Virus record (IMG/VR): IMGVR_UViG_2721755643_000001
DNA: 42,956 nt
Direction: 5' to 3' (one strand)
Source of the DNA: a virus
Taxonomy: Duplodnaviria; Heunggongvirae; Uroviricota; Caudoviricetes
Numbering within the stretch: the first letter of the stretch is position 1; every line of letters begins with the position of its first letter. Below, one piece after another: positions 2,452-19,191 of the stretch. Both the position numbers and the translations under genes were made by a program. The notes beneath the pieces were generated by a model. The model saw nothing but the letters and a program-made list of their open reading frames with translations, was not told where the DNA came from and ran no database searches.

Positions 2452-3525
2452 TCATTTGTCGATTTCAATTTTGTCCCATTCCCGTCCACGGCTGTCCCTA
2501 TACCGCGCCGCCATTGAATCTGATTTATGTCCGAGAAGACGTTGAGCAAATTTATCGCCAATCTGGTTCCGGTATAGCCTCGCTGACAGGCTACGCAGTT
2601 CATGGAATGTTGGCGGGTCTCCATCAAATGAGAGTCCGGAGGCATTTCTCGCCTTTGTAAAATACTTCGATACTGTTTTCGGGGAAAGCGGTTCGTGATG
2701 CGTTGAGGCGATTACAGTTTCACTGCCGCTGGCCTCCCTGCATTTCTGTAGTGTATCAACCAGTGAGATGTTGAGCGCGTCAATCGTTAGCGTCAGCGGA
2801 ATGGCAATCTTGGCTCCTGTTTTACCCTGCTCAATGTGAAGATGGTTGTCGTTTATGTCTGACCACTTCATTCTGCATAAATCGCCCACTCTCTGCCCTG
2901 TAATGACGGCCAAATCCATTGCCAGCCTCAGCCAGATAGGGAGAGGTTCGGCTGCATGGTAAATCTCGATATACTCATTAGCTGTAAGCCTTGAGCGCCT
3001 TACTTCTGACTTTGCTGTGCGGGTTGCTGTTACCGGATTCGTAGCCACATGCCCCTCGGCTATTGCTTCACGAAAAACGTCAACAAGGGTTGACCTGATT
3101 AATTTTGCGGAAGCCGCTTTACCTTCTGCTACGTAGGTGTTTAGCATTGCTGCCACCTCTTTCGTTGATATGTCATTGAGCGGTTTGTCCGGCAATTTTC
3201 TTCGAATCGCCCTGATTTTGCTGGCGTAGTCGAGTAGAGTTTTCGGTCTGATACCCCTCTCGCTGAGGATTGTTTCATATCGGTCAAGCCACGCATGAAG
3301 AGTGATTGCGTCAGCGCCTTTAATCCTGTCTATCAGTGACTCACGCCTGTTCTCAGATAGCAACTCAATATTGGCCTGAATAGCCTCTGAAACTGCTATC
3401 CTTCTGTCTCTGCCTAATCCGAACTCTTTACCCGTCCTTGGGTCCCTGTAGCAGTAATATCCATTGTTTCTTATATAAAGGTTAGGGGGTAAATCCCGGC
3501 GCTCATGACTTCGCCTTCTTCCCAT
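2452..3525 (-). CDS. int: Tyrosine integrase, lambda Int family
   Basis: 357 aa; N-terminus MGRRRSHERRDLPPNLYIRNNGYYCYRDPRTGKEFGLGRD and C-terminal HELRSLSARLY...LLGH...YRD motifs match lambda Int closely. Confidence 0.95.
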   Translation of the reverse strand: MGRRRSHERRDLPPNLYIRNNGYYCYRDPRTGKEFGLGRDRRIAVSEAIQANIELLSENRRESLIDRIKGADAITLHAWLDRYETILSERGIRPKTLLDYASKIRAIRRKLPDKPLNDISTKEVAAMLNTYVAEGKAASAKLIRSTLVDVFREAIAEGHVATNPVTATRTAKSEVRRSRLTANEYIEIYHAAEPLPIWLRLAMDLAVITGQRVGDLCRMKWSDINDNHLHIEQGKTGAKIAIPLTLTIDALNISLVDTLQKCREASGSETVIASTHHEPLSPKTVSKYFTKARNASGLSFDGDPPTFHELRSLSARLYRNQIGDKFAQRLLGHKSDSMAARYRDSRGREWDKIEIDK

Positions 3526-3721
3526 TTCTGATCCTCTTCAAAAGGCTACCTGTTACTGGTCGATTTAAGTCAACCTTTACCGCTGATTCGTGGAACAGAT
3601 ACTCTCTTCCATCCTTAACCGGAGGAGGGAATATCCTGCACTCGCGTACCCAGCGGCGAACCGTTTCCGGGTTCCGTGGACGTAACTGACGGGCGTTCCA
3701 TTCTTTGAGCGTCAAATACAT
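3503..3721 (-). CDS. xis: Excisionase, lambda Xis-like
   Basis: MYLTLKEWNARQ...RRWVRECRIFPPPVKDGREYLFHESAVKVDLNRP is near-identical to my recollection of lambda Xis; overlaps int start as in lambda. Start taken at the internal Met of track ORF 3503..3736. Confidence 0.9.
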   Translation of the reverse strand: MYLTLKEWNARQLRPRNPETVRRWVRECRIFPPPVKDGREYLFHESAVKVDLNRPVTGSLLKRIRNGKKAKS

Positions 3722-3825
3722 GTCATATCTCTGCAATATGACCGCCAGTAAATATACAGAATACTGGCGGGTGTGGTTGATTTTTAATAATCAGCTATGA
3801 AGTTCTAATCTGGATATAATGAAAT

Positions 3826-4014
3826 TCACGAGGACTGAAGTTTCTCGCAATTAAAATTTATCAGTTTTACTTTCTGCTCTCTGGAAACGCCTGCTTCTTT
3901 TTCCCCTGAGAGCATTTTTTCGCATTCTGATTTCGTTAGTTTTGTCTTTGAGTATCTTGTCCAGCTGGCAGGAGATCCACCTTCCTTTTCAATAGTGGCT
4001 GTAATTTTATACAT
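3826..4014 (-). CDS. Hypothetical small phage protein
   Basis: Track ORF 3826..4038; internal start at MYKITAT has a strong GGAGGTG Shine-Dalgarno 5 nt upstream. Confidence 0.5.
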   Translation of the reverse strand: MYKITATIEKEGGSPASWTRYSKTKLTKSECEKMLSGEKEAGVSREQKVKLINFNCEKLQSS

Positions 4015-4064
4015 GAACACCTCCATTAATATTTTCAAAAACCGTGTCCAAAATGCACTTGGTT

Positions 4065-5162
4065 TTACACCGGAATATTCTCATCGTATCCTGCTTGTTG
4101 CGTTTCGTTTTGTGTTTGTGGATCCGGGAATGCATATTCAACGCCTTCCAGTTCAATCCATAGTGCATTACGACCAGCTTTGATTGTCGGCCAGTCCATA
4201 CCTTTGATTCTTTCCCATGAGCGGGAGGTGAATGTTTTTTCCAGCAAATCAGCTTTTGCGCGTTTGGCGTCGTTACTGGTGCCCCCATGGTGCTTGTTGA
4301 GCAACTCGATAATTTCATCAAGTGCGATTTCTTTTGCACGCTTTTCTTTTAGCCATGTCGGTGTACCGTCGTTGGCAAATAATTCACTGTTATCCCGTGA
4401 GGTATCGATGCCGAGGTGTTCACCTCCCAGGTTAAGAAACTCGATATGAGGAAGAAAGTTTTTAAATGTTGGGTTTGAAAATACCTGTCCATCAATACGG
4501 GTGGAGCGATCTTTTAGTATTCTGGCGGTGCGCCACACCTGACCGGTTTCTATGTTCATTTGCTTCTCCATCTGGATCAGGATGGAGGGTTCATAACCGG
4601 TTTCTGTTTCTGCTTTCATTTTTATACCGGTTTTTGCCAACTGGCGTTTGCCATCATCACCTTCGAAAAAGTCATACTCATATCCTGCACGCCCGCACAT
4701 AATAATGTGCGCCTGACTGTTAACAAATCGATCGGTAAAGCGTCGCCACTCCTGTTTGAGCCACGCCCAGTCTGAAAATTCCAGTCCTCGTTTACGGTTT
4801 CGGCGTCTGGCATACTCGTCGCATAATCCGGTCCAGAAGTGACTGATGGAGTCGATGATCATTACGGAACCGCTGCTTTCCGCTTCATTAATGGCTTCAA
4901 GCAGATCAACAAACGAGCGGGTTTTTGCCGTAAATAATTCGATATTTTCCGCATCAAAGCGGGGTTTAACCCAGTCAGAGCCTGTTTCTGTGTCCAGAAA
5001 CATTACCGGGCGGTTACCAGCTTCAATTCCCCGTTGCCGCATAAGCATTACCAGACCAATAGCCAGTTCGCTTGCTGTGTAGGTTTTGCCGTCGCCAGCA
5101 AACCCCATAATTCCTGCTTTTAGATAGGCCTGTGTGTTTATTGCTCGTTGAAAAAGCGCCAT
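4065..5162 (-). CDS. RecA-superfamily ATPase (Sak4-like recombination protein, tentative)
   Basis: Walker A GFAGDGKT and RecA-type Walker B VMIIDSISHF; 365 aa; sits in the early-left recombination-gene position. Confidence 0.7.
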   Translation of the reverse strand: MALFQRAINTQAYLKAGIMGFAGDGKTYTASELAIGLVMLMRQRGIEAGNRPVMFLDTETGSDWVKPRFDAENIELFTAKTRSFVDLLEAINEAESSGSVMIIDSISHFWTGLCDEYARRRNRKRGLEFSDWAWLKQEWRRFTDRFVNSQAHIIMCGRAGYEYDFFEGDDGKRQLAKTGIKMKAETETGYEPSILIQMEKQMNIETGQVWRTARILKDRSTRIDGQVFSNPTFKNFLPHIEFLNLGGEHLGIDTSRDNSELFANDGTPTWLKEKRAKEIALDEIIELLNKHHGGTSNDAKRAKADLLEKTFTSRSWERIKGMDWPTIKAGRNALWIELEGVEYAFPDPQTQNETQQAGYDENIPV

Positions 5163-9790: not shown

Positions 9791-10093
9791 ATGAAGATCA
9801 TCTCAGTTAAAACACTCAGGGATTTTTGGGCGGAGAATCCCGATGCAGAACAACCGCTAAGGGCATGGGTGGATGAGGCAGCAAAAGCTGACTGGAAAAG
9901 CCCGGCAGACATTAAGGCACAATACCGAACGGCTAGTATATTGAAAAGCCGGCGTGTGGTATTCAACATAAAAGGTAATCATTACCGTTTAATTGTTGCA
10001 ATTGCGTATCAGCGAGGATGGGTATTTGTTAAATTCATCGGAAGCCACAAGGAATACGATGCCATTGATGCTGATACCATCGAACTGGAGTAA
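9791..10093 (+). CDS. higB: Type II toxin, HigB/RelE-like mRNA interferase
   Basis: About 100 aa, MKIISVKTLRDFW...YRLIVAIAYQRGWVFVKFIGSHKEYD resembles HigB; toxin-first order, 2-nt gap to an HTH antitoxin. Confidence 0.75.
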   Translation: MKIISVKTLRDFWAENPDAEQPLRAWVDEAAKADWKSPADIKAQYRTASILKSRRVVFNIKGNHYRLIVAIAYQRGWVFVKFIGSHKEYDAIDADTIELE

Positions 10094-10095
10094 GC

Positions 10096-10455
10096 ATGAA
10101 CATCAAACCTATTCGTACAGAGCAAGATTATGAAGCCGCGTTGCGTGCTGTTGAGCCTATGTTCGACAATGAACCGGAAATTAACACGCCTGAGGGGGAT
10201 TTCTTTGAGGTGATGTGTTTGCTAATAGAGGAATATGAAAAAAAACATTATCCCATTGAGCCACCATCCCCAATTGAAGCTATAAGATTTCGCATGGAAC
10301 AGCAGGGGCTGACCGTGAAAGATTTGGAACCCGCAATTGGGAAAAAAAATCGGGTTTACGAGGTGTTGAATGGCACCAGAAGCCTTACGTTACCAATGAT
10401 TCGCCGTCTTCATAATCAATTTGGTATCCCCTTGGAAAGCTTGGTGGGATTATAA
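10096..10455 (+). CDS. higA: Type II antitoxin, HigA-like (XRE-type HTH)
   Basis: 119 aa immediately downstream of the toxin; C-terminal HTH-like segment GLTVKDLEPAIGKKNRVYEVLNG. Confidence 0.75.
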   Translation: MNIKPIRTEQDYEAALRAVEPMFDNEPEINTPEGDFFEVMCLLIEEYEKKHYPIEPPSPIEAIRFRMEQQGLTVKDLEPAIGKKNRVYEVLNGTRSLTLPMIRRLHNQFGIPLESLVGL

Positions 10456-10501: not shown

Positions 10502-10894
10502 TCAGGCAGTTTTGTTTTTCTGCCGCAGTAACTCTTCAAGTTTTCGTTTATAGAAATCGCGTTTTTGCTCCATATCTCGAATGATCTGCTCTGCGTCGCT
10601 TTGAGGTAACTCATCTAAAAGCGATATGATTTTTCGTTGCTGTTCTGTAAGTTGCGGTTGGTTGTCATTAGTGGATACAGCCATCTTATCGCCGAGAGCT
10701 TCTTCTTCCATAAAGAACCAATGGACGGGATGTTGTGAGAGCTCTGCTAATTTTTCCAGTTTATCCATTCTTGGCATCACGCCTTTCAACCAACCTTGCA
10801 CGGATTGGGGTTTTACACCAAGACGTCTTCCCAGCTCTGACTGGTTTATATTCAATTCCTGCAACACCTGCTGAAGGCGTTTTACAAAGATCAT
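10502..10894 (-). CDS. Prophage repressor (CI-like, HTH_XRE)
   Basis: HTH QSELGRRLGVKPQSVQGWLKG; divergent from the Cro-like gene; ATG start with AGGGGTGG Shine-Dalgarno chosen over upstream GTG codons in the track ORF. Confidence 0.8.
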   Translation of the reverse strand: MIFVKRLQQVLQELNINQSELGRRLGVKPQSVQGWLKGVMPRMDKLEKLAELSQHPVHWFFMEEEALGDKMAVSTNDNQPQLTEQQRKIISLLDELPQSDAEQIIRDMEQKRDFYKRKLEELLRQKNKTA

Positions 10895-10939
10895 CACCAC
10901 CCCTCGAAAACTAATCTCGCAATTCTACAGAAAAAATTG

Positions 10940-11020
10940 ATAAGTGGCATTACAAATAGAAGTTGAAATTTAAAATTAAATTTGTAATTATCGATACCAT
11001 CGTAAAGTTTGGAGGGAAAC
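10940..11020. promoter_or_regulatory. OR-like operator region with divergent promoters
   Basis: Intergenic between divergent repressor and Cro-like genes; ATTACAAAT (10949-10957) and ATTTGTAAT (10980-10988) are inverted half-sites; 15-mer shared with 9733-9747. Confidence 0.55.
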
Positions 11021-11293
11021 ATGCAAAAAAGTACTCAAATAAAAATCCTGTCGATAATGAGCCAATCAGAATTAGGGCGTCGTCTTGGTAAAACTCCACA
11101 AACCATAAGTGGGTGGTTTAAAAAACGAGTTCCTGCGGAGGAGGTTATTCCTGCATGTGAGGCGCTTGACTGGGGAGTGACTCCGCATGAATTGCGCCCT
11201 GATAAATACCCTAACCCGACCGACGGTTTACCTGTTGGATGTAAGGTTAACAGATCAAATGAACCGGAGTTGATTCATGAAAATCAGGCATGA
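11021..11293 (+). CDS. Cro-like HTH regulator (YdaS-like position)
   Basis: HTH QSELGRRLGKTPQTISGW; GGAGGG Shine-Dalgarno before the ATG at 11021; first rightward gene. Confidence 0.75.
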   Translation: MQKSTQIKILSIMSQSELGRRLGKTPQTISGWFKKRVPAEEVIPACEALDWGVTPHELRPDKYPNPTDGLPVGCKVNRSNEPELIHENQA

Positions 11294-11702
11294 ACACATC
11301 CGCATGGCGATGAATACCTGGGCGCATCCGGACGGTGAGAAAGTACCGGCTGCAGAGATTACCAAAGCGTATTTTGAACTGGGAATGACGTTTCCGGAGC
11401 TGTACGACGATTCACATCCGGAAGCCCTGGCTCGCAATACTCAGAAAATTTTCCGCTGGGTGGAGAAAGACACCCCTGATGCAGTTGAAAAAATTCAGGC
11501 GTTGTTACCAGCGATCGAAAAGGCAATGCCACCTTTGCTGGTGGCCAGAATGCGCAGCCACAGTTCAGCTTATTTTCGGGAGCTGGTGGAGACGCGGGAA
11601 CGACTGGTGAGAGATGCTGATGATTTTGTCGCAGTGGCGATCGCCGGTTTCAACCAGATGAATCGTGGTGGCCCGGCGGGAAATGCCGTGGCTGTACATT
11701 GA
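11277..11702 (+). CDS. cII-like / YdaT-family regulatory protein (tentative)
   Basis: 141-aa ORF overlapping the Cro-like stop; position equals cII in lambda or ydaT in Rac; family is inference. Confidence 0.55.
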   Translation: MKIRHEHIRMAMNTWAHPDGEKVPAAEITKAYFELGMTFPELYDDSHPEALARNTQKIFRWVEKDTPDAVEKIQALLPAIEKAMPPLLVARMRSHSSAYFRELVETRERLVRDADDFVAVAIAGFNQMNRGGPAGNAVAVH

Positions 11703-13487: not shown

Positions 13488-13941
13488 GCAGCAAATCCGG
13501 CAGGTCTGCCGCCAGTGCATGGAGCGTTGTCGGGCGGGTGAAACATGGCCTCCGGACCTGGCTGAGTTTGTGGCGCTGATTTCGGAAAGCGGAGCCAATC
13601 CATTCGGTCTGACGGTGGATGCCGTGATGGAAGAGTACCGTCGCTGGCGCAATGAGTCCTGGCGATACGACGGGAGCGATAAATACCCGTGGCCCCAGCC
13701 CGTGCTGTATCACATCTGCCTCGAGATGCGTTCAAAAGGGATTGAGCGGCAGATGACCGAAGGGGAGTTAAAACGACTTGCAGAACGGCAACTGACGAAA
13801 TGGGCAAAGCATGTTGGTAATGGCTTCAGTGTTCCGCCCATCCGGCGACAACTGGCAGGACCAAAACGTCCTGCGGGACCAACGCCAATTGAGTTGCTGA
13901 AACAGGAGTATGAACGCCGGAAAGCGGCTGGTTTTGTTTGA
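13276..13941 (+). CDS. Replication protein P-like (helicase loader)
   Basis: C-terminal two thirds align by eye with lambda P ([10 protein letters not shown]..., [11 protein letters not shown]..., [13 protein letters not shown]); ATG at 13276 has an AAGGGGGG Shine-Dalgarno but overlaps the O-like gene by about 210 nt; later starts (13399, 13480) possible. Confidence 0.65.
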
Positions 13942-13975
13942 GTTGAGAAGTGATTTTTACCGGGAGAAAAATTTT

Positions 13976-14488
13976 ATGGAGACCGTTTTTGACGCACTGA
14001 AAGCAATGGGAAAAGCCTCTTCACAGGAAGTTGCAGCACGCCTGGGCATGACCCGGGATGAAGCAATCAACGAGCTGTGGAAACTGAAGCGTCGGGGTGA
14101 GGCAGACAACAAAGGCCCGATGTGGTGGCTGACATCCGGCGATGAGGAAAAACAGGCCGGGTATCGTGAAACCCCCGTTGTGGATTTAATCCCACAGAGA
14201 GGGACTGAGAGTGAAAAAACAGCCAGACAGGAAGCGTCCGGAACAGAAAACACGGGTCAGCATGCAGATGTGACAGAAGTTGTTCAGCCAATCCCTGCGT
14301 TTACTGAAAAACAGCAGGATTATGTGATTCTGCCATCACTGCATGCGGCAAACCGTGAGCTGCGCCGGGCAAAAGGTCAGGTCCAGAAGTGGGAGCGTAT
14401 CTGCGCCGCGCTACGGGAGCTGAATAAACACCGGGACGTTGTCCGGCAGATTGTCGACTCTTCCCGCCGTGTTGCATCGGAAAAGTGA
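13976..14488 (+). CDS. Hypothetical protein
   Basis: Start at internal ATG of track ORF 13910..14488 with a GGGAGA Shine-Dalgarno; 170 aa. Confidence 0.55.
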   Translation: METVFDALKAMGKASSQEVAARLGMTRDEAINELWKLKRRGEADNKGPMWWLTSGDEEKQAGYRETPVVDLIPQRGTESEKTARQEASGTENTGQHADVTEVVQPIPAFTEKQQDYVILPSLHAANRELRRAKGQVQKWERICAALRELNKHRDVVRQIVDSSRRVASEK

Positions 14489-14503
14489 TTGCCGGAGGCG
14501 CTT

Positions 14504-14929
14504 ATGGCAAAAGTATTTACACAGGAAGAGCGGGAAAAATTAAAGGGGCGGGTTGTTGAACTTGTACGTCTTAGCGGTCGCGAGACGTTACGGCAACTGG
14601 AAGCGAAAACAGGTGCGACAAGATATCTGTTGAGCGTTCTCGCCAGAGAGCTGGTTGCCAGTGGTGATGTATACAACTCTGACTACGGGTTATTTCCCTC
14701 TGAACAGGCTCGTAAGGACTGGCAAAACGCCCGCAAAAAACTATCAAGGGCAAAACTGAAGAAAAAAACATCTGTGGTTGATCCGGACCTTATCTGGTCG
14801 TTACCAGACGGCGAAATACGTCGCTACGACAGTCGCCTAAACATAATCTGTCGCGAGTGCCGGAAGAGCGAAGTTATGCAGCGCATATTGTCGTTTTATC
14901 AGGGTAATTTTCAGGAGGTGATGGCGTGA
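14504..14929 (+). CDS. Hypothetical protein
   Basis: ATG preceded by GGAGG; 141 aa; basic C-terminal half. Confidence 0.55.
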   Translation: MAKVFTQEEREKLKGRVVELVRLSGRETLRQLEAKTGATRYLLSVLARELVASGDVYNSDYGLFPSEQARKDWQNARKKLSRAKLKKKTSVVDPDLIWSLPDGEIRRYDSRLNIICRECRKSEVMQRILSFYQGNFQEVMA

Positions 14930-15231
14930 GGGTGAGAGTCTATATCGCCGGTCCAATGACCGGGTATAAAAATTTCAACCGTGAGGCGTTTCACAATGCG
15001 GAAGAGGAACTGAAACGGGAAGGGCATACCGTCTTAAACCCGGCAGTACTTCCGGACGGGCTGACACAGCCGCAGTACATGGATATCTGCATGGCGATGA
15101 TTCGTTGTGTGGATGCGATTTACATGCTGAAAGGCTGGCAGCGGTCAGCAGGCGCTAAGGCAGAACTGGCGCTGGCGGAGAAACTGGGGCATGCGGTGAT
15201 TTTTCAGGAGACAGCCAGTGTGCAAGACTAA
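14926..15231 (+). CDS. Nucleoside 2-deoxyribosyltransferase-like protein (DUF4406-like, tentative)
   Basis: GTG start after AGGAGG; N-terminal VYIAGPMTG motif characteristic of that fold; 101 aa. Confidence 0.55.
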   Translation: MRVRVYIAGPMTGYKNFNREAFHNAEEELKREGHTVLNPAVLPDGLTQPQYMDICMAMIRCVDAIYMLKGWQRSAGAKAELALAEKLGHAVIFQETASVQD

Positions 15232-15673
15232 TTACCAGGCATTACGTGAACGTTATTCACCAATTCAGGTGCCGGAATGTCCTGTTTGTGGCGATGAAAT
15301 GTCGATACAGCGCATATTTTCCAGAACGCATATTGTGTATGCCTGCACAGGTGAGGGGGATGATGGATATTTTAAAACTGGTCGAACTTTTGCGGATGAG
15401 CATTACCTGAAATCGCGCGTAACCGTCGTTGATGTTAGCGATCCTGACGTACTGGCTTTACTGAAAGAGCTGGAAGTTAAAGACAAACGCATTGCAGAAT
15501 TGACAGATGCGCTTACACAAATGATTAATGCGCACAAAACCACAATTCGTTTTGGTCATGAACGCATAACTGAATGTGGTGGTGATTGCGACTCGCCGGA
15601 AAAGATGATTTCAGAAAATCCGGATATCAGAATGGCAGAGGCTGTTTTGAGAGCAGGGATAAAAACTGAATAA
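15218..15673 (+). CDS. Hypothetical Cys-rich protein
   Basis: 151-aa ORF with CPVCGDE...CTGEGDD and CGGDCD motifs; GTG start in the track; start uncertain. Confidence 0.5.
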   Translation: MCKTNYQALRERYSPIQVPECPVCGDEMSIQRIFSRTHIVYACTGEGDDGYFKTGRTFADEHYLKSRVTVVDVSDPDVLALLKELEVKDKRIAELTDALTQMINAHKTTIRFGHERITECGGDCDSPEKMISENPDIRMAEAVLRAGIKTE

Positions 15674-15768
15674 TTAAATTTAGCACAGCAAATAAAATTT
15701 AATCCTTAACCGGAGGGATTTCTGCACCCTCAGAACATCAGGAGGCCGCCTGAAAGGGCGGTAGTGAA

Positions 15769-15951
15769 ATGCGAAAGTTCAAAATAATTATTGAAACGGG
15801 AATAGCTGGTGGAGATTTTGAGGATGTATTCGAAGTGGACGATGACGCAACACCTGATGAAATTCATGATGAAGCAAAAGAAATTTTCTTTAACTACTGC
15901 AATTATTCATATCACGAAATAAAAGACGAAGAGGAAGAACAAAATGGCTGA
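15769..15951 (+). CDS. Hypothetical small acidic protein
   Basis: 60-aa ORF with a very acidic C-terminus (KDEEEEQNG). Confidence 0.45.
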   Translation: MRKFKIIIETGIAGGDFEDVFEVDDDATPDEIHDEAKEIFFNYCNYSYHEIKDEEEEQNG

Positions 15952-16120
15952 TTTTGGTTCAACTAAATACAACGTCAGTTTTAAAGAATGGCATGAACTG
16001 TTAATGGCCTATGCAGAGTTACGCGGTGGAAGTGCTGCTGATGCCGATGCATGGCGTGATGCTTATGAAGCAGGAAAAACACCGGTCGAAGCATATTGTG
16101 ATGAGTGGGGCGATGAATGA
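15944..16120 (+). CDS. Hypothetical small protein (58 aa)
   Basis: Not in the track; ATG preceded by GAGGAAG; overlaps both neighbours by ATGA/stop coupling. Confidence 0.45.
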   Translation: MADFGSTKYNVSFKEWHELLMAYAELRGGSAADADAWRDAYEAGKTPVEAYCDEWGDE

Positions 16121-16632
16121 GCGAGATTAATTATCAGGAAGGGCATGAAACGGTAGGGCAGGCAAAACCAGTTGCATGGCGATATCGCTATGTGAAAAAA
16201 AGCGTTACGGACTTTCAGGAGAAGATGTGGGTTGGTGACTGGAAATATGTACCGACAAAAGAGGATTGCAACGACAGGCCGAGCTATGAGATTCAGGCCT
16301 TATTCACTGCCCCGCCAGTCCCGGTGACATCAGAAGGACTGGTTAAAGCCGTGCGCTTTTATGAACAGGTAAAGCGTGAAAATCCGCCAGCTGAAACAGG
16401 AGCATGGAAAGATGCTGTTGATTGGGTACTCAAAGAGGCCTGCTGTGCTGCCATTCTGGGTAAAGCTGACAATCCACTAGCATCCAGTAATCAGGTTAGC
16501 GAATTAACAATGTGGGTTAAACGACTGGTCAGTCAACTGAAAAAAGCTCAGCCGGACTGCAAATTACCGGAGAAGGCGATGGATTACCTGAAACGAAATG
16601 GACTGATAAGCGTGGAGGATGTTTTACGATGA
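16117..16632 (+). CDS. Hypothetical protein
   Basis: 171-aa ORF; ATG overlaps the preceding stop. Confidence 0.6.
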   Translation: MSEINYQEGHETVGQAKPVAWRYRYVKKSVTDFQEKMWVGDWKYVPTKEDCNDRPSYEIQALFTAPPVPVTSEGLVKAVRFYEQVKRENPPAETGAWKDAVDWVLKEACCAAILGKADNPLASSNQVSELTMWVKRLVSQLKKAQPDCKLPEKAMDYLKRNGLISVEDVLR

Positions 16633-16917
16633 CCTGGTCTGAAGCATTCACAACGGTAGGAATCGCACTGGCGGTGGTGGTGTATTCGATTTGCCGCTGG
16701 GGATAAAAACGGTTTGCGGGAAAAGGAGAGTTAAGTAGAATTGCAGCGGGTGCTTGAGGCTATCTGTCTCAGGCATGAACACCAAAAGGCAGATAGAGAA
16801 AAGCCCCAGTTAACATTACGCGTCCGGCAAGACGCTTAACATTAATCTGAGGCTCAATCTATGAACGGCAAATCTAGGTTAGCCTCTTACGTGCCGAAAG
16901 GCAAGGAGAAGCAGGCT

Positions 16918-17073
16918 ATGAAGCAGCAAAAGGCGATGTTAGTCGCCCTGATCGTCATCTGTATTACCGTCATTGTGACGGCACTGGTAACGAGGAAAGA
17001 CCTCTGCGAGGTACGAATCCGAACCGGCCAGACGGAGGTCGCTGTCTTCACAGCTTACGAACCTGAGGAGTAA
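16918..17073 (+). CDS. Hok/Gef-family type I toxin
   Basis: 51 aa; MKQQKAMLVALIVICITVIVTALVTRKDLCEVRIRTGQTEVAVFTAYE parallels Hok (TM helix, conserved RK.LCE.R and EVA.F.AYE); AAGGAGA Shine-Dalgarno. Confidence 0.75.
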   Translation: MKQQKAMLVALIVICITVIVTALVTRKDLCEVRIRTGQTEVAVFTAYEPEE

Positions 17074-17080
17074 GAGACCA

Positions 17081-17102
17081 GGCGAGGGAGAAATCCCTCG
17101 CC
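17081..17102 (+). other. Perfect 9-bp stem with GAAA tetraloop in the hok 3' UTR
   Basis: GGCGAGGGA-GAAA-TCCCTCGCC, 8 nt after the hok stop; resembles the fold-back elements of hok mRNAs. Confidence 0.6.
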
Positions 17103-17141
17103 ACCTCTGATGAGTCAGGCATCCTCAACGCACCCGCACTT

Positions 17142-17168
17142 AACCCGCTTCGGCGGGTTTTGTTTTTT
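17142..17168 (+). terminator. Rho-independent terminator
   Basis: AACCCGC-TTCG-GCGGGTT followed by TTTGTTTTTT. Confidence 0.75.
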
Positions 17169-17247: not shown

Positions 17248-17847
17248 ATGGCGCATATACAACTGGTCAAACAAACCTCTTCCGGATTACTTCTCCCGGC
17301 GACGCCGGAGAGTTGCGATTTTCTGCATCAAATCAAAACAGGTGAGTGGATACACGCAGACTTTAAGCGTGTGCGTAACTACGCATTCCACAAGCGTTTT
17401 TTCAGACTCCTGCAACTGGGATTCGATTACTGGACTCCGATCGGTGGGGCGATCACGCCCCGAGAACGAGAACTGGTATCAGGCTTCGTTGAGTACCTGT
17501 GCGAATCAGTAGGTCGGGAACATACGCCAGCTCTGAGCGAAGCCGCAGAGCAATATCTGAATACAGTTGCAACACGCAGAACCCGGGATACGGCATTGCT
17601 AAAGTCGTTTGAGGCTTTCCGCGAGTGGGTAACCATTCAGGCCGGATTTTACACCGAGCATATTTATCCAGACGGTAGCCGCGGGCGTCGGGCGAAGTCC
17701 ATTGCTTTTGCGAATATGGACGAAACCGAGTTTCAGCAGGTTTATAAATCTGTACTGAATGTGCTGTGGAACTGGATCCTATTCCGTAAATTCTCTTCTC
17801 CGGAGGAAGTCGAAAATGTGGCTGCGCAGCTGCTGGAGTTTGCGTGA
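17248..17847 (+). CDS. Nin-region protein, YbcN-like (DUF1367, tentative)
   Basis: 199-aa ORF placed before a YbcO-like gene and Q, as in DLP12; family from memory. Confidence 0.55.
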   Translation: MAHIQLVKQTSSGLLLPATPESCDFLHQIKTGEWIHADFKRVRNYAFHKRFFRLLQLGFDYWTPIGGAITPRERELVSGFVEYLCESVGREHTPALSEAAEQYLNTVATRRTRDTALLKSFEAFREWVTIQAGFYTEHIYPDGSRGRRAKSIAFANMDETEFQQVYKSVLNVLWNWILFRKFSSPEEVENVAAQLLEFA

Positions 17848-18137
17848 TGGCGGATTTACGTAAAGCGGCGCGAGGCCAGATGTGTACAGTCAGAATCCCT
17901 GGCTACTGCAATCACAATCCTGAAACGTCTGTACTGGCGCATTATCGGCTGGCGGGAACGTGCGGAACAGCGATAAAACCACACGATATGCAGGCGGCTA
18001 TTGCCTGTAGCTCGTGCCACGATTTAATCGACGGGCGGGTAAAAACCAGCGATTACACCAAAGAAGAATTACGCCTGATGCATGCAGAAGGTGTTTTTCG
18101 CACACAAGAAATCTGGAGAAAGGAAGGTTATTTATGA
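17844..18137 (+). CDS. YbcO-like putative zinc-binding nuclease (DUF1364, tentative)
   Basis: 97 aa with Cys/His cluster (CTVRIPGYCNH...CSSCHDLIDG); ATGA overlap with the upstream gene. Confidence 0.55.
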   Translation: MMADLRKAARGQMCTVRIPGYCNHNPETSVLAHYRLAGTCGTAIKPHDMQAAIACSSCHDLIDGRVKTSDYTKEELRLMHAEGVFRTQEIWRKEGYL

Positions 18138-18883: not shown

Positions 18884-18960
18884 GGCCCTTTAGCTCAGTT
18901 GGTCAGAGCGAGCGACTCATAATCGCCAGGTCGCTGGTTCAAGTCCAGCAAGGGCCACCA
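18884..18960 (+). tRNA. tRNA with CAT anticodon (Ile2-like, ileX/ileZ type)
   Basis: Cloverleaf with 7-bp acceptor GGCCCTT/AAGGGCC, anticodon loop CTCATAA, T-arm GCTGG-TTCAAGT-CCAGC, encoded CCA; close to my recollection of E. coli ileX. Confidence 0.8.
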
Positions 18961-18961
18961 A

Positions 18962-19038
18962 CCACCACTAGCTCATCCGGATAGAGCATCAACCTTCTAA
19001 GTTGACGGTGCGAGGTTCGAGTCCTCGGTGGTGGGCCA
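18962..19038 (+). tRNA. tRNA-Arg (anticodon TCT)
   Basis: Acceptor CCACCAC/GTGGTGG, D-arm GCTC...GAGC, anticodon stem TCAAC/GTTGA with loop CTTCTAA, T-arm CGAGG-TTCGAGT-CCTCG, encoded CCA. Confidence 0.85.
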
Positions 19039-19040
19039 GC

Positions 19041-19116
<76 letters not shown>

Positions 19117-19119
19117 TAT

Positions 19120-19191
<72 letters not shown>

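Follow-up and report, generated by a model that had tools for sequence, protein, structure and literature searches.

The window analyzed here is a 42,956-nt stretch of DNA from a virus of the Caudoviricetes (IMG/VR record IMGVR_UViG_2721755643_000001), and within it we examined a 1,781-bp block of six open reading frames (ORF1 to ORF6; positions 14926-16706). The block lies in the P-to-Q interval of a Rac/lambda-like Escherichia coli prophage, the positional equivalent of the lambda nin region, and it consists of mosaic accessory genes that share a rightward operon with the prophage replication genes. Its first gene, ORF1, encodes a protein of the DUF4406 family that almost certainly has the fold of the nucleoside 2-deoxyribosyltransferase (NDT) superfamily, judging from its predicted model. 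We lean toward a reading of ORF1 as a minimal (deoxy)nucleoside-5'-monophosphate N-glycosidase or phosphodeoxyribosyl-transferase, which would trim nucleotide pools in lytic growth. All parts of the block belong to described families, the five larger ORFs are all annotated already in RefSeq, and the region as such is already known and ordinary.

14926-15231, + strand: ORF1, 101 aa, GTG start; DUF4406 protein, predicted minimal four-stranded member of the NDT/DNPH1 (DrHyd) superfamily

Fold and active site of ORF1

ORF1 matched the Pfam model of DUF4406 (PF14359) with 129 bits (cut-off 22; E 9e-38), its residues 4-93 aligning to positions 2-91 of the 91-position model, and it is a typical member in which all family-invariant residues are present. 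PF14359 is a function-unassigned family in the N-(deoxy)ribosyltransferase-like clan, and the identical protein in RefSeq is named 'DUF4406 domain-containing protein'. The AlphaFold2 (AF2) model of ORF1, built with 28 homologues, has a predicted local distance difference test (pLDDT) score of 91 and the layout b1-a1-b2-a2-b3-a3-b4. When this model was searched against the Protein Data Bank (PDB) with Foldseek, the matches down to E ~0.01 were exclusively NDT-superfamily enzymes, namely the NDTs of T. brucei, L. mexicana, C. thermalis and Bacillus, the CMP N-glycosidases BcmB and MilB, and human DNPH1. The template modeling (TM) score was ~0.72 when normalized on ORF1 and ~0.5 on the targets; therefore, ORF1 would correspond to just the first two-thirds of the NDT-type enzymes. 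At the sequence level, a profile of 66 diverse DUF4406 members reached T. brucei NDT over the whole domain (E 6e-5). This deeper profile was needed for the signal, as a PDB search with the single ORF1 sequence gave chance matches only. No usable alignment to human DNPH1 or L. leichmannii NDT came from hhalign with the ORF1 alignment. The NDT likeness that the preliminary description had drawn from a YIAGP motif (residues 6-10; nt 14941-14955) is thus borne out by the DUF4406 match and by the fold matches to NDT, DNPH1 and MilB. Another structural match, DUF1937 (PDB 1T1J, a Pseudomonas aeruginosa hypothetical protein with 17% identity), is functionally uninformative because DUF1937 is likewise uncharacterized.

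The conservation figures come from 148 of the best, diverse representatives of DUF4406. Essentially invariant among them are G9, F22, P39, P43, Y51, M58, S74, G76, A77 and E80 (G9, F22 and S74 100%; E80, G76, A77, Y51 and P39 99%), position 6 is Tyr in 85% and Phe in 14%, and every conserved residue maps to the ligand-binding edge of the sheet. The literature gives the catalytic triad of the superfamily as Tyr/Asp(Asn)/Glu, the Glu being the covalent nucleophile. The alignments place the residues of ORF1 as follows: First, E80, in the helix after strand 3 and 99% conserved among 141 family representatives, aligns with the nucleophile Glu of the G-T-A-F-E motif in T. brucei NDT. Second, Y6 of Y-I-A-G-P aligns with the strand-1 Tyr of the same five residues in the T. 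brucei enzyme. Third, P39 aligns with the conserved transferase Pro of T. brucei NDT after strand 2. At last, S74, which occupies the Glu-6 position, aligns with the T. brucei NDT Asp that binds the 5'-OH in nucleoside-specific NDTs. In such NDTs the 5'-OH is held by Asp or Asn residues, and a water-excluding Pro is kept in transferases (PMC12884076). In DNPH1, Ser98, six residues before Glu104, contacts the 5'-phosphate (PMC10483697), and S74 of ORF1 lies likewise six residues ahead of E80. As read from these alignments, ORF1 keeps the nucleophile and the Tyr that partners it, and also has a phosphate-compatible Ser and a transferase-type Pro. The preliminary suggestion of an enzymatic fold acting on nucleotides is plausible, since the superfamily nucleophile Glu is kept in ORF1.

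DNPH1/Rcl (PDB 4P5E, 8QHR, 2KHZ), a deoxynucleoside monophosphate (dNMP) N-hydrolase, resembles ORF1 in its Rossmann-like fold, in a Tyr that follows strand 1, in a nucleophile Glu within the helix behind strand 3 and in the Ser at Glu-6. It differs in that the similarity is only ~18-20% in structural alignments, in that ORF1 lacks ~40 C-terminal residues of DNPH1, including the second phosphate-binding Ser, which comes from the partner subunit, and in that the equivalent of DNPH1 Asp80 in ORF1 is probably Cys55.

The NDT/PDT enzymes (T. brucei 2A0K, L. mexicana 6QAI, C. thermalis 8PQR, L. leichmannii 1F8X) gave the best profile and Foldseek matches of ORF1, and are its top neighbors in both structure and sequence; the strand-1 motif of T. 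brucei NDT is nearly identical to YIAGP, and in the alignment ORF1 has counterparts of its Glu nucleophile and of its Pro following strand 2. This closeness, the 99% conservation of P39 and the finding that some phage NDTs are active transferases (bioRxiv 10.1101/2025.10.22.683976) speak for ORF1 as a true nucleoside 2-deoxyribosyltransferase, swapping bases between deoxynucleosides in salvage, which is the label used in many phage annotations. We consider this unlikely, because ORF1 departs from the NDTs proper (PF05014, EC 2.4.2.6) on several counts. Its score against Pfam Nuc_deoxyrib_tr (PF05014) is 14.5 bits, under the cut-off of 28.8; the 5'-OH-binding Asp is replaced by the invariant Ser of DUF4406 (S74), and the triad Asp/Asn is probably a Cys. 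Furthermore, the model stops after strand 4, against five strands in the NDTs, and ORF1 has no counterpart of the C-terminal part by which the NDT active site is completed (TM on the target ~0.5).

Proposed activity of ORF1 and its alternatives

In the mechanism that we propose, the substrate, a (deoxy)nucleoside 5'-monophosphate, would bind to ORF1 where the sheet has its C-terminal edge, and Glu80, set in place by Tyr6, would attack C1' to form a covalent (deoxy)ribosyl-5-phosphate-enzyme intermediate with release of the base. The intermediate would then be resolved either by water, as in a hydrolase, or by another base, as in phosphodeoxyribosyl transfer, and the nucleotide pool would thereby be reshaped or cleaned during phage replication; ORF1 would be co-expressed with the replication genes. 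Cleavage of an N-glycosidic bond is probable, and we suggest more tentatively that the substrate may be a nucleotide monophosphate rather than a nucleoside or an NAD-type molecule.

A functional parallel comes from DmtZ, a phage NDT-superfamily enzyme that acts as a dAMP hydrolase and deoxyribose-5-phosphate transferase with dNTP pyrophosphatases as partners, and for which the authors built their own hidden Markov model (HMM) for want of a Pfam model (PMC12884076). Like ORF1, DmtZ (Gordonia phage Ghobes / Arthrobacter phage Wayne) is phage-encoded and combines a 'hydrolase' feature (no 5'-OH Asp/Asn) with the 'transferase' Pro; it works next to dNTP pyrophosphatases, and some DUF4406 genes are similarly placed. 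Unlike ORF1, it has ~145 aa, five strands and a Tyr/Asn/Glu triad, and it belongs to phages with Z (2-aminoadenine) genomes, whereas this prophage is without the PurZ pathway.

To place DUF4406 in a wider context, we used a sample of 80 loci from one-genome-per-species data, covering Enterobacterales, Vibrio, Shewanella, Aeromonas, Thalassospira, Janthinobacterium, Comamonas, Planctomycetota, Chloroflexota, Alicyclobacillus and Flavobacteriia. Across this sample, DUF4406 belongs to the early regions of prophages and is preceded by rep-O, P, DnaB or IstB-like genes; a C5 methylase, RdgC or an RNase-T-like exonuclease is adjacent in some cases. No single neighbor is conserved across the 80 loci, and only the general position after replication genes recurs. 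An all-alpha (MazG/PRA-PH-like) nucleoside triphosphate (NTP) pyrophosphatase is encoded at most two genes from DUF4406 in Mycobacterium phage Ariel, Rhodococcus phage ReqiDocB7 and Vibrio phage 1.087.A. In the metagenome-assembled genome (MAG) Proteobacteria bacterium OH_SFB_70, the two are fused in frame within one 265-aa ORF (3500-4297 of that sequence stretch), with an N-terminal DUF4406 domain followed by an all-alpha NTP pyrophosphatase domain that is homologous to the pyrophosphatases of Vibrio phage 1.087.A and Ariel (gp164). This fusion is the sole case among the 80 genome loci and 146 family representatives. The pairing mirrors that of DutZ/DUF5664 with DmtZ, in which dNTP is converted to dNMP and the base is then removed or swapped by an NDT-superfamily enzyme.

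Several points weigh against the proposed N-glycosidase or transferase activity. First, the HMM alignments to T. brucei NDT and LmPDT set C55 of ORF1 opposite the Asn of these enzymes. We read the kinetoplastid Asn located 8 residues before strand 3 as the triad residue from the sequence spacing, consistent with the statement that the TbPDT triad contains Asn (PMC12884076). Position 55 of DUF4406 is Cys in 66%, Asp in 14% and Thr in 7%, whereas D53, conserved in just 47%, is on the variable side of helix 2. From the sequence alignment at E 6e-5 and the helix periodicity, the triad Asp/Asn is probably replaced by C55 rather than by D53. Since C55 stands where DNPH1 has Asp80, the proposed general acid/base (PMC10483697), turnover by ORF1 could be slow, absent or chemically different. 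Second, ORF1 ends before the fifth strand and the C-terminal helix, from which, in NDT and DNPH1, the neighboring subunit contributes base- and phosphate-binding residues. Third, no NTP pyrophosphatase partner was found in this prophage, in the other 79 of the 80 loci or in the 146 representatives. At last, no report of biochemistry for any DUF4406 protein was found in the literature.

The apparent loss of the general acid/base Asp to Cys also bears on the idea that ORF1 is a non-catalytic or very slow nucleotide binder, a 'sponge' or sensor for a nucleotide-derived signal or alarm molecule that would serve as an anti-defense factor. Inactive ligand-binding versions occur in the TIR/DrHyd/SLOG class (PMC9503650), and a protein of ~95 aa that is encoded in a replication-gene operon and has all of its conserved residues at the ligand-binding edge of the sheet would suit such a role. 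The conservation of the nucleophile Glu (99%) together with its Tyr/Phe partner is, however, more typical of catalysis, and we found no match to a PADLOC or other anti-defense family, no defense-linked neighborhood and no experimental report in the literature; we therefore regard a pure binder as rather improbable. The preliminary description had raised anti-defense or DNA-modification functions for the block, and these gained no backing: none of the six ORFs matched a PADLOC defense or anti-defense model below E 0.03, no defense-related neighbor is conserved, and the literature is silent on the function of DUF4406.

Another possibility is that ORF1 acts on NAD+/ADP-ribose derivatives in a TIR-like or ADP-ribosyl-cyclase-like manner, depleting or remodeling NAD-derived messengers. 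This is very unlikely, because the structural scores of NDT, MilB and DUF1937 are above those of TIR domains, similarity at the sequence level is limited to NDT/PDT, and the neighboring genes encode replication and nucleotide enzymes, not NAD enzymes. In addition, the viral DrHyd proteins in a 2022 survey of viral NAD-ADPr systems are ADP-ribosyl cyclases only, and DUF4406 is not listed there. We give equally little weight to a broader speculation on DUF4406 as a phage counter-measure of wide distribution. In it, DUF4406 would be a minimal Tyr/Cys/Glu N-glycosidase, or a binder without turnover, and by destroying or sequestering danger signals derived from nucleotides it would blind nucleotide-sensing immunity, with ORF3/ORF4 and the 27-aa form of the ORF6 peptide possibly as further host-directed factors. 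The danger signals could be modified dNMPs from the degraded host chromosome, for example m6-dAMP, or ADP-ribose (ADPR)-type messengers; m6-dAMP is a defense trigger according to a recent report.

Prophage context and cassettes of the block

Several E. coli isolates from humans, for example RMDEC364 (NZ_CM177020.1), carry the block in their chromosomes with 100% identity. According to the RefSeq annotation, the host element is a lambdoid/Rac-like prophage adjoining gyrA-yfaA, in which the block is preceded by genes for integrase, excisionase, a RecE pseudogene, Gam, HigBA, repressor, a Cro-like protein, YdaT, replication proteins (O-like/DnaT-like) and P. The gene order continues from P through a DUF1627 remnant and DUF977 to the block, and then through hokD, DUF1367, DUF1364/YbcO, the Q-like DUF1133 and four tRNAs to the lysis and head genes. 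Since the block is flanked by the replication genes and P on one side and by the Q-like gene on the other, it is nin-equivalent by position, and the preliminary term 'nin-like region' is right in this sense. The possibility that all ORFs would prove to be NinB-H-type proteins was also considered there; none of the six is a NinB-H homologue, and no Nin family occurs among their Pfam, PHROG and NCBIfam matches, NCBIfam giving no match for any of the six. By analogy with the lambda delayed-early pR operon, the genes of the block would be expressed in lytic growth. The DUF977 gene and the features that follow ORF1 are:

14489-14929, + strand: DUF977/Ren-like gene (Pfam DUF977 1.6e-29; phrog_142 'Ren-like exclusion protein'), translationally coupled to ORF1 by a GTGA overlap
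15218-15673, + strand: ORF2, 151 aa, GTG start; Ead/Ea22-like
15674-15768: intergenic gap of 95 nt between ORF2 and ORF3, the sole uncoupled junction in the block
15769-15951, + strand: ORF3, 60 aa; Pfam DUF7167 2.4e-14, phrog_1997 2e-30
15944-16120, + strand: ORF4, 58 aa, isoelectric point (pI) 4.3; phrog_519 1.2e-23; 8-nt overlap with ORF3
16117-16632, + strand: ORF5, 171 aa; phrog_660 2e-74
16629-16706, + strand: ORF6, 25 aa (MTWSEAFTTVGIALAVVVYSICRWG); ATGA overlap with the ORF5 stop

The ORF listing returned all six ORFs on the + strand between 14926 and 16706, as originally claimed. Start and stop codons overlap by 4 nt at DUF977/ORF1, 14 nt at ORF1/ORF2, 8 nt at ORF3/ORF4, and 4 nt at both ORF4/ORF5 and ORF5/ORF6; the earlier wording 'tightly coupled' thus holds for four of the five internal junctions and fails at the 95-nt gap between ORF2 and ORF3. 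Shine-Dalgarno-like sequences precede ORF1 (AGGAGG, 7 nt before), ORF2 (AGGAGA) and ORF6 (GGAGGA, 10 nt before), and promoter- or terminator-like sites within the block were no commoner than in shuffled sequence. The family matches of the five larger ORFs (DUF4406 9e-38, Ead_Ea22 2e-20, DUF7167 2e-14, phrog_519 1e-23, phrog_660 2e-74) are far above chance. The G+C fraction is 0.44 at window positions 15001-16000, against 0.52-0.57 in the upstream replication genes, and in ORF3 it is 0.35 overall and 0.28 at third codon positions; such low values are consistent with ORF2-ORF4 as recently acquired accessory cassettes.

Comparison of loci indicates that the six genes are separately exchangeable cassettes, not one machine. 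Among 80 E. coli viral contigs of IMG/VR, the DUF977-DUF4406 adjacency is nearly constant and the downstream genes are highly variable. The shared strand, the overlapping starts and stops at most junctions and the usual joint travel of ORF3, ORF4 and ORF5 would fit one co-operating system, such as a DNA-modification or anti-defense operon. We hold this to be extremely unlikely, because the full order occurs in only one of the 80 IMG/VR loci, DUF4406 is combined with many different downstream sets, ORF2 is usually absent, and the mosaic junctions lie at gene borders, with ORF5 itself a patchwork. The Shiga toxin (Stx) phage ArgO145 further argues against such a system, as it has the ORF3-ORF4 cassette, Ea22-like genes and ORF6 in other surroundings, without a DUF4406 gene in the stretch examined. 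In this Escherichia phage (NC_049918.1, 5018-7095, minus strand; stretch 3032-5109), we found the cassette of DUF7167 and the 58-aa protein, Ea22-like genes, the ORF5 C-terminal module and an unannotated 27-aa ORF, with PAPS reductase, HNH, a toxin-antitoxin pair, an anti-repressor and a DNA methyltransferase as neighbors. The notion of a functional block was therefore not upheld: its genes shuffle independently, and ORF2 and ORF5 are Ead/Ea22-like and do not belong to enzyme families.

ORF2 and ORF5 share a mosaic character. Residues 4-105 of ORF2 matched Pfam Ead_Ea22 (PF13935) at 2e-20 (74.1 bits, cut-off 27), and the protein is built of a conserved N-terminal domain, a coiled-coil segment and variable, interchangeable C-terminal modules. 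PGAP/RefSeq places its start at the internal GTG at 15269, giving 134 aa (16344-16748 of the record stretch, equal to 15269-15673 of the window). The first 20 residues of ORF2 (MSxxDYQALRERYSPKPVPEC) are conserved in homologues of E. coli, Salmonella, Cronobacter and Enterobacter; because the homologues keep the 17 residues upstream of the PGAP start, the GTG at 15218 (151 aa) is the right start and the 134-aa model is truncated. Both forms circulate in databases. The preliminary description called the protein Cys-rich, which is overstated, as it has 6 Cys in 151 aa, of which C21, C24 and C43 are conserved among the homologues together with H62. This CxxC...C...H pattern suggests a putative small metal-binding knuckle in the N-terminal domain. 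ORF2 is missing from most related loci; in many of them the DUF7167 cassette comes after DUF4406 and nothing matches ORF2.

ORF5 has 1,598 homologues, which among the matches listed are nearly all from E. coli/Shigella, and their alignment divides it into three modules (about 1-70, 72-115 and 116-171). In other prophages these modules are variously lost, exchanged or linked to N- and C-termini of Ead/Ea22 or DUF551 type. Its AF2 model has a pLDDT of 44, so that no fold is assignable. Matches of ORF5 to AI-designed TIM barrels in the PDB were set aside as summed repeats of one weak match.

Both proteins relate to the modular, highly mosaic lambda Ea22/Ead family (PF13935), ORF2 through its N-terminal ~100 residues and ORF5 through shared modules, and phrog_250 matches both. 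The lambda Ea22 gene lies in the exo-xis region, whereas ORF2 and ORF5 lie in the nin-equivalent P-Q region. No PDB chain matched ORF2 at E <= 1, and hence no similarity to the Ea22 C-terminal domain structure was found. Ea22 of lambda is described as pro-lysogenic in two reports (PMC7093339, PMC10834534), and such a function is known for Ea22 of lambda and Stx phages only. By a weak analogy, ORF2 and ORF5 would probably modulate a lysis-lysogeny or host-physiology decision via protein-protein contacts.

ORF3 and ORF4 form an acidic pair. ORF3 is very acidic (pI 4.1, 19 D+E), and ORF4 and DUF7167 co-occur in every IMG/VR architecture that has either; in hundreds of genomes the two ORFs are annotated as DUF7167 or hypothetical.

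The short hydrophobic ORF proposed at about 16629-16706 proved to be conserved, and ORF6 is very likely a real small hydrophobic peptide of the single-pass membrane type. The grand average of hydropathy (GRAVY) is 1.06. The usual product has 27 aa (MTWPEAFTTVGIAMAVALVVYSICRWG), the copy in the window being an in-frame 6-nt deletion variant. In about 40 of 80 viral contigs that have an ORF5 homologue, ORF6 follows this homologue via the same ATGA overlap, and the rest diverge exactly there; on the 3' side, divergence sets in right after the ORF6 stop into at least 5 different continuations. The frame is open in 15/15 haplotypes, and the other two frames have stops in 15/15. Variable sites number 7, 5 and 12 at the first, second and third codon positions, with 12 synonymous and 16 non-synonymous changes (crude dN/dS 0.43). 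The peptide is annotated in some GenBank genomes and is left out by PGAP/RefSeq. The 90% cluster of the 27-aa peptide includes 121-aa DUF551 proteins that do not contain the peptide, so that this clustering is spurious. A 198-aa E. coli database protein is a frameshifted ORF5 homologue that runs into ORF6 and ends in ...TWPEAFTTAGIAMAVALVVYSICRWG; this readthrough is probably a mutation or sequencing error, and it would place a hydrophobic helix at the end of a larger protein.

Several features of the prophage outside the block were also recorded. An unbroken 192-aa ORF at window 13910-14488 is represented in RefSeq by two DUF1627 pseudogene fragments, one with its C-terminus missing and one with its N-terminus missing, and probably derives from a longer gene by internal deletion in frame. 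Starting 42 nt past ORF6 is a complete type I toxin-antitoxin locus of the hok/sok type (RefSeq hokD; window 16748-17160). It is identified by Rfam 'sok' (112 bits; 16748-16923) and Pfam HOK_GEF (1.5e-23), with hok at 16918-17073 and a mok-frame ORF at 16861-17073, and a G+C-rich terminator-like hairpin with a T-run lies 3' of the toxin gene (17142-17159). The DUF1367 gene (17248-17847), which has the PHROG label 'NinB/Orf', and YbcO (17844-18137) follow outside the block. Four tandem tRNA genes (RefSeq Ile, Arg, Thr and Val; window 18884-19190) lie between the Q-like and lysis genes, and all four pass the Rfam tRNA threshold. A HigB/HigA-type toxin-antitoxin pair (window 9791-10455, equal to 10866-11530 of the record stretch) is located inside the immunity region beside the repressor gene.

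Distribution and labels of DUF4406

DUF4406 comprises 18,666 clusters at 50% identity (E <= 1e-3; exhaustive representative search). A homologue is present in 308 GenBank phage records, ranging from Vibrio to Mycobacterium phages, and the DUF4406 gene was found in 1,199 of 5,426 complete E. coli genomes. Ten long DUF4406 representatives were considered as informative domain fusions and set aside, having no recognizable partner domain in Pfam or PHROGs. The PHROG labels 'MazG-like' (phrog_12019) and 'hydrolase' (phrog_15484) were likewise rejected as functional leads, as they trace to misannotated plain DUF4406 genes. Two plain DUF4406 proteins carry other names in their deposited records: Ariel gp162 (2477-2857 of its stretch) is a 'MazG-like pyrophosphatase', and Arthrobacter phage Abidatro gp53 (2480-2866 of its stretch) is a 'deoxycytidylate deaminase'.

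As a very large, phage-associated and enzyme-like family, whose active site seems to be a modified form of that in NDT/DNPH1, DUF4406 is the main wider interest of the region. The biochemistry of ORF1 is of value because a phage NDT-superfamily enzyme, DmtZ, has just been shown to remodel dNMP pools. Assigning an activity to this 101-aa protein would annotate thousands of phage genes, and would also correct the labels 'MazG-like', 'dCMP deaminase' and 'nucleoside deoxyribosyltransferase'.

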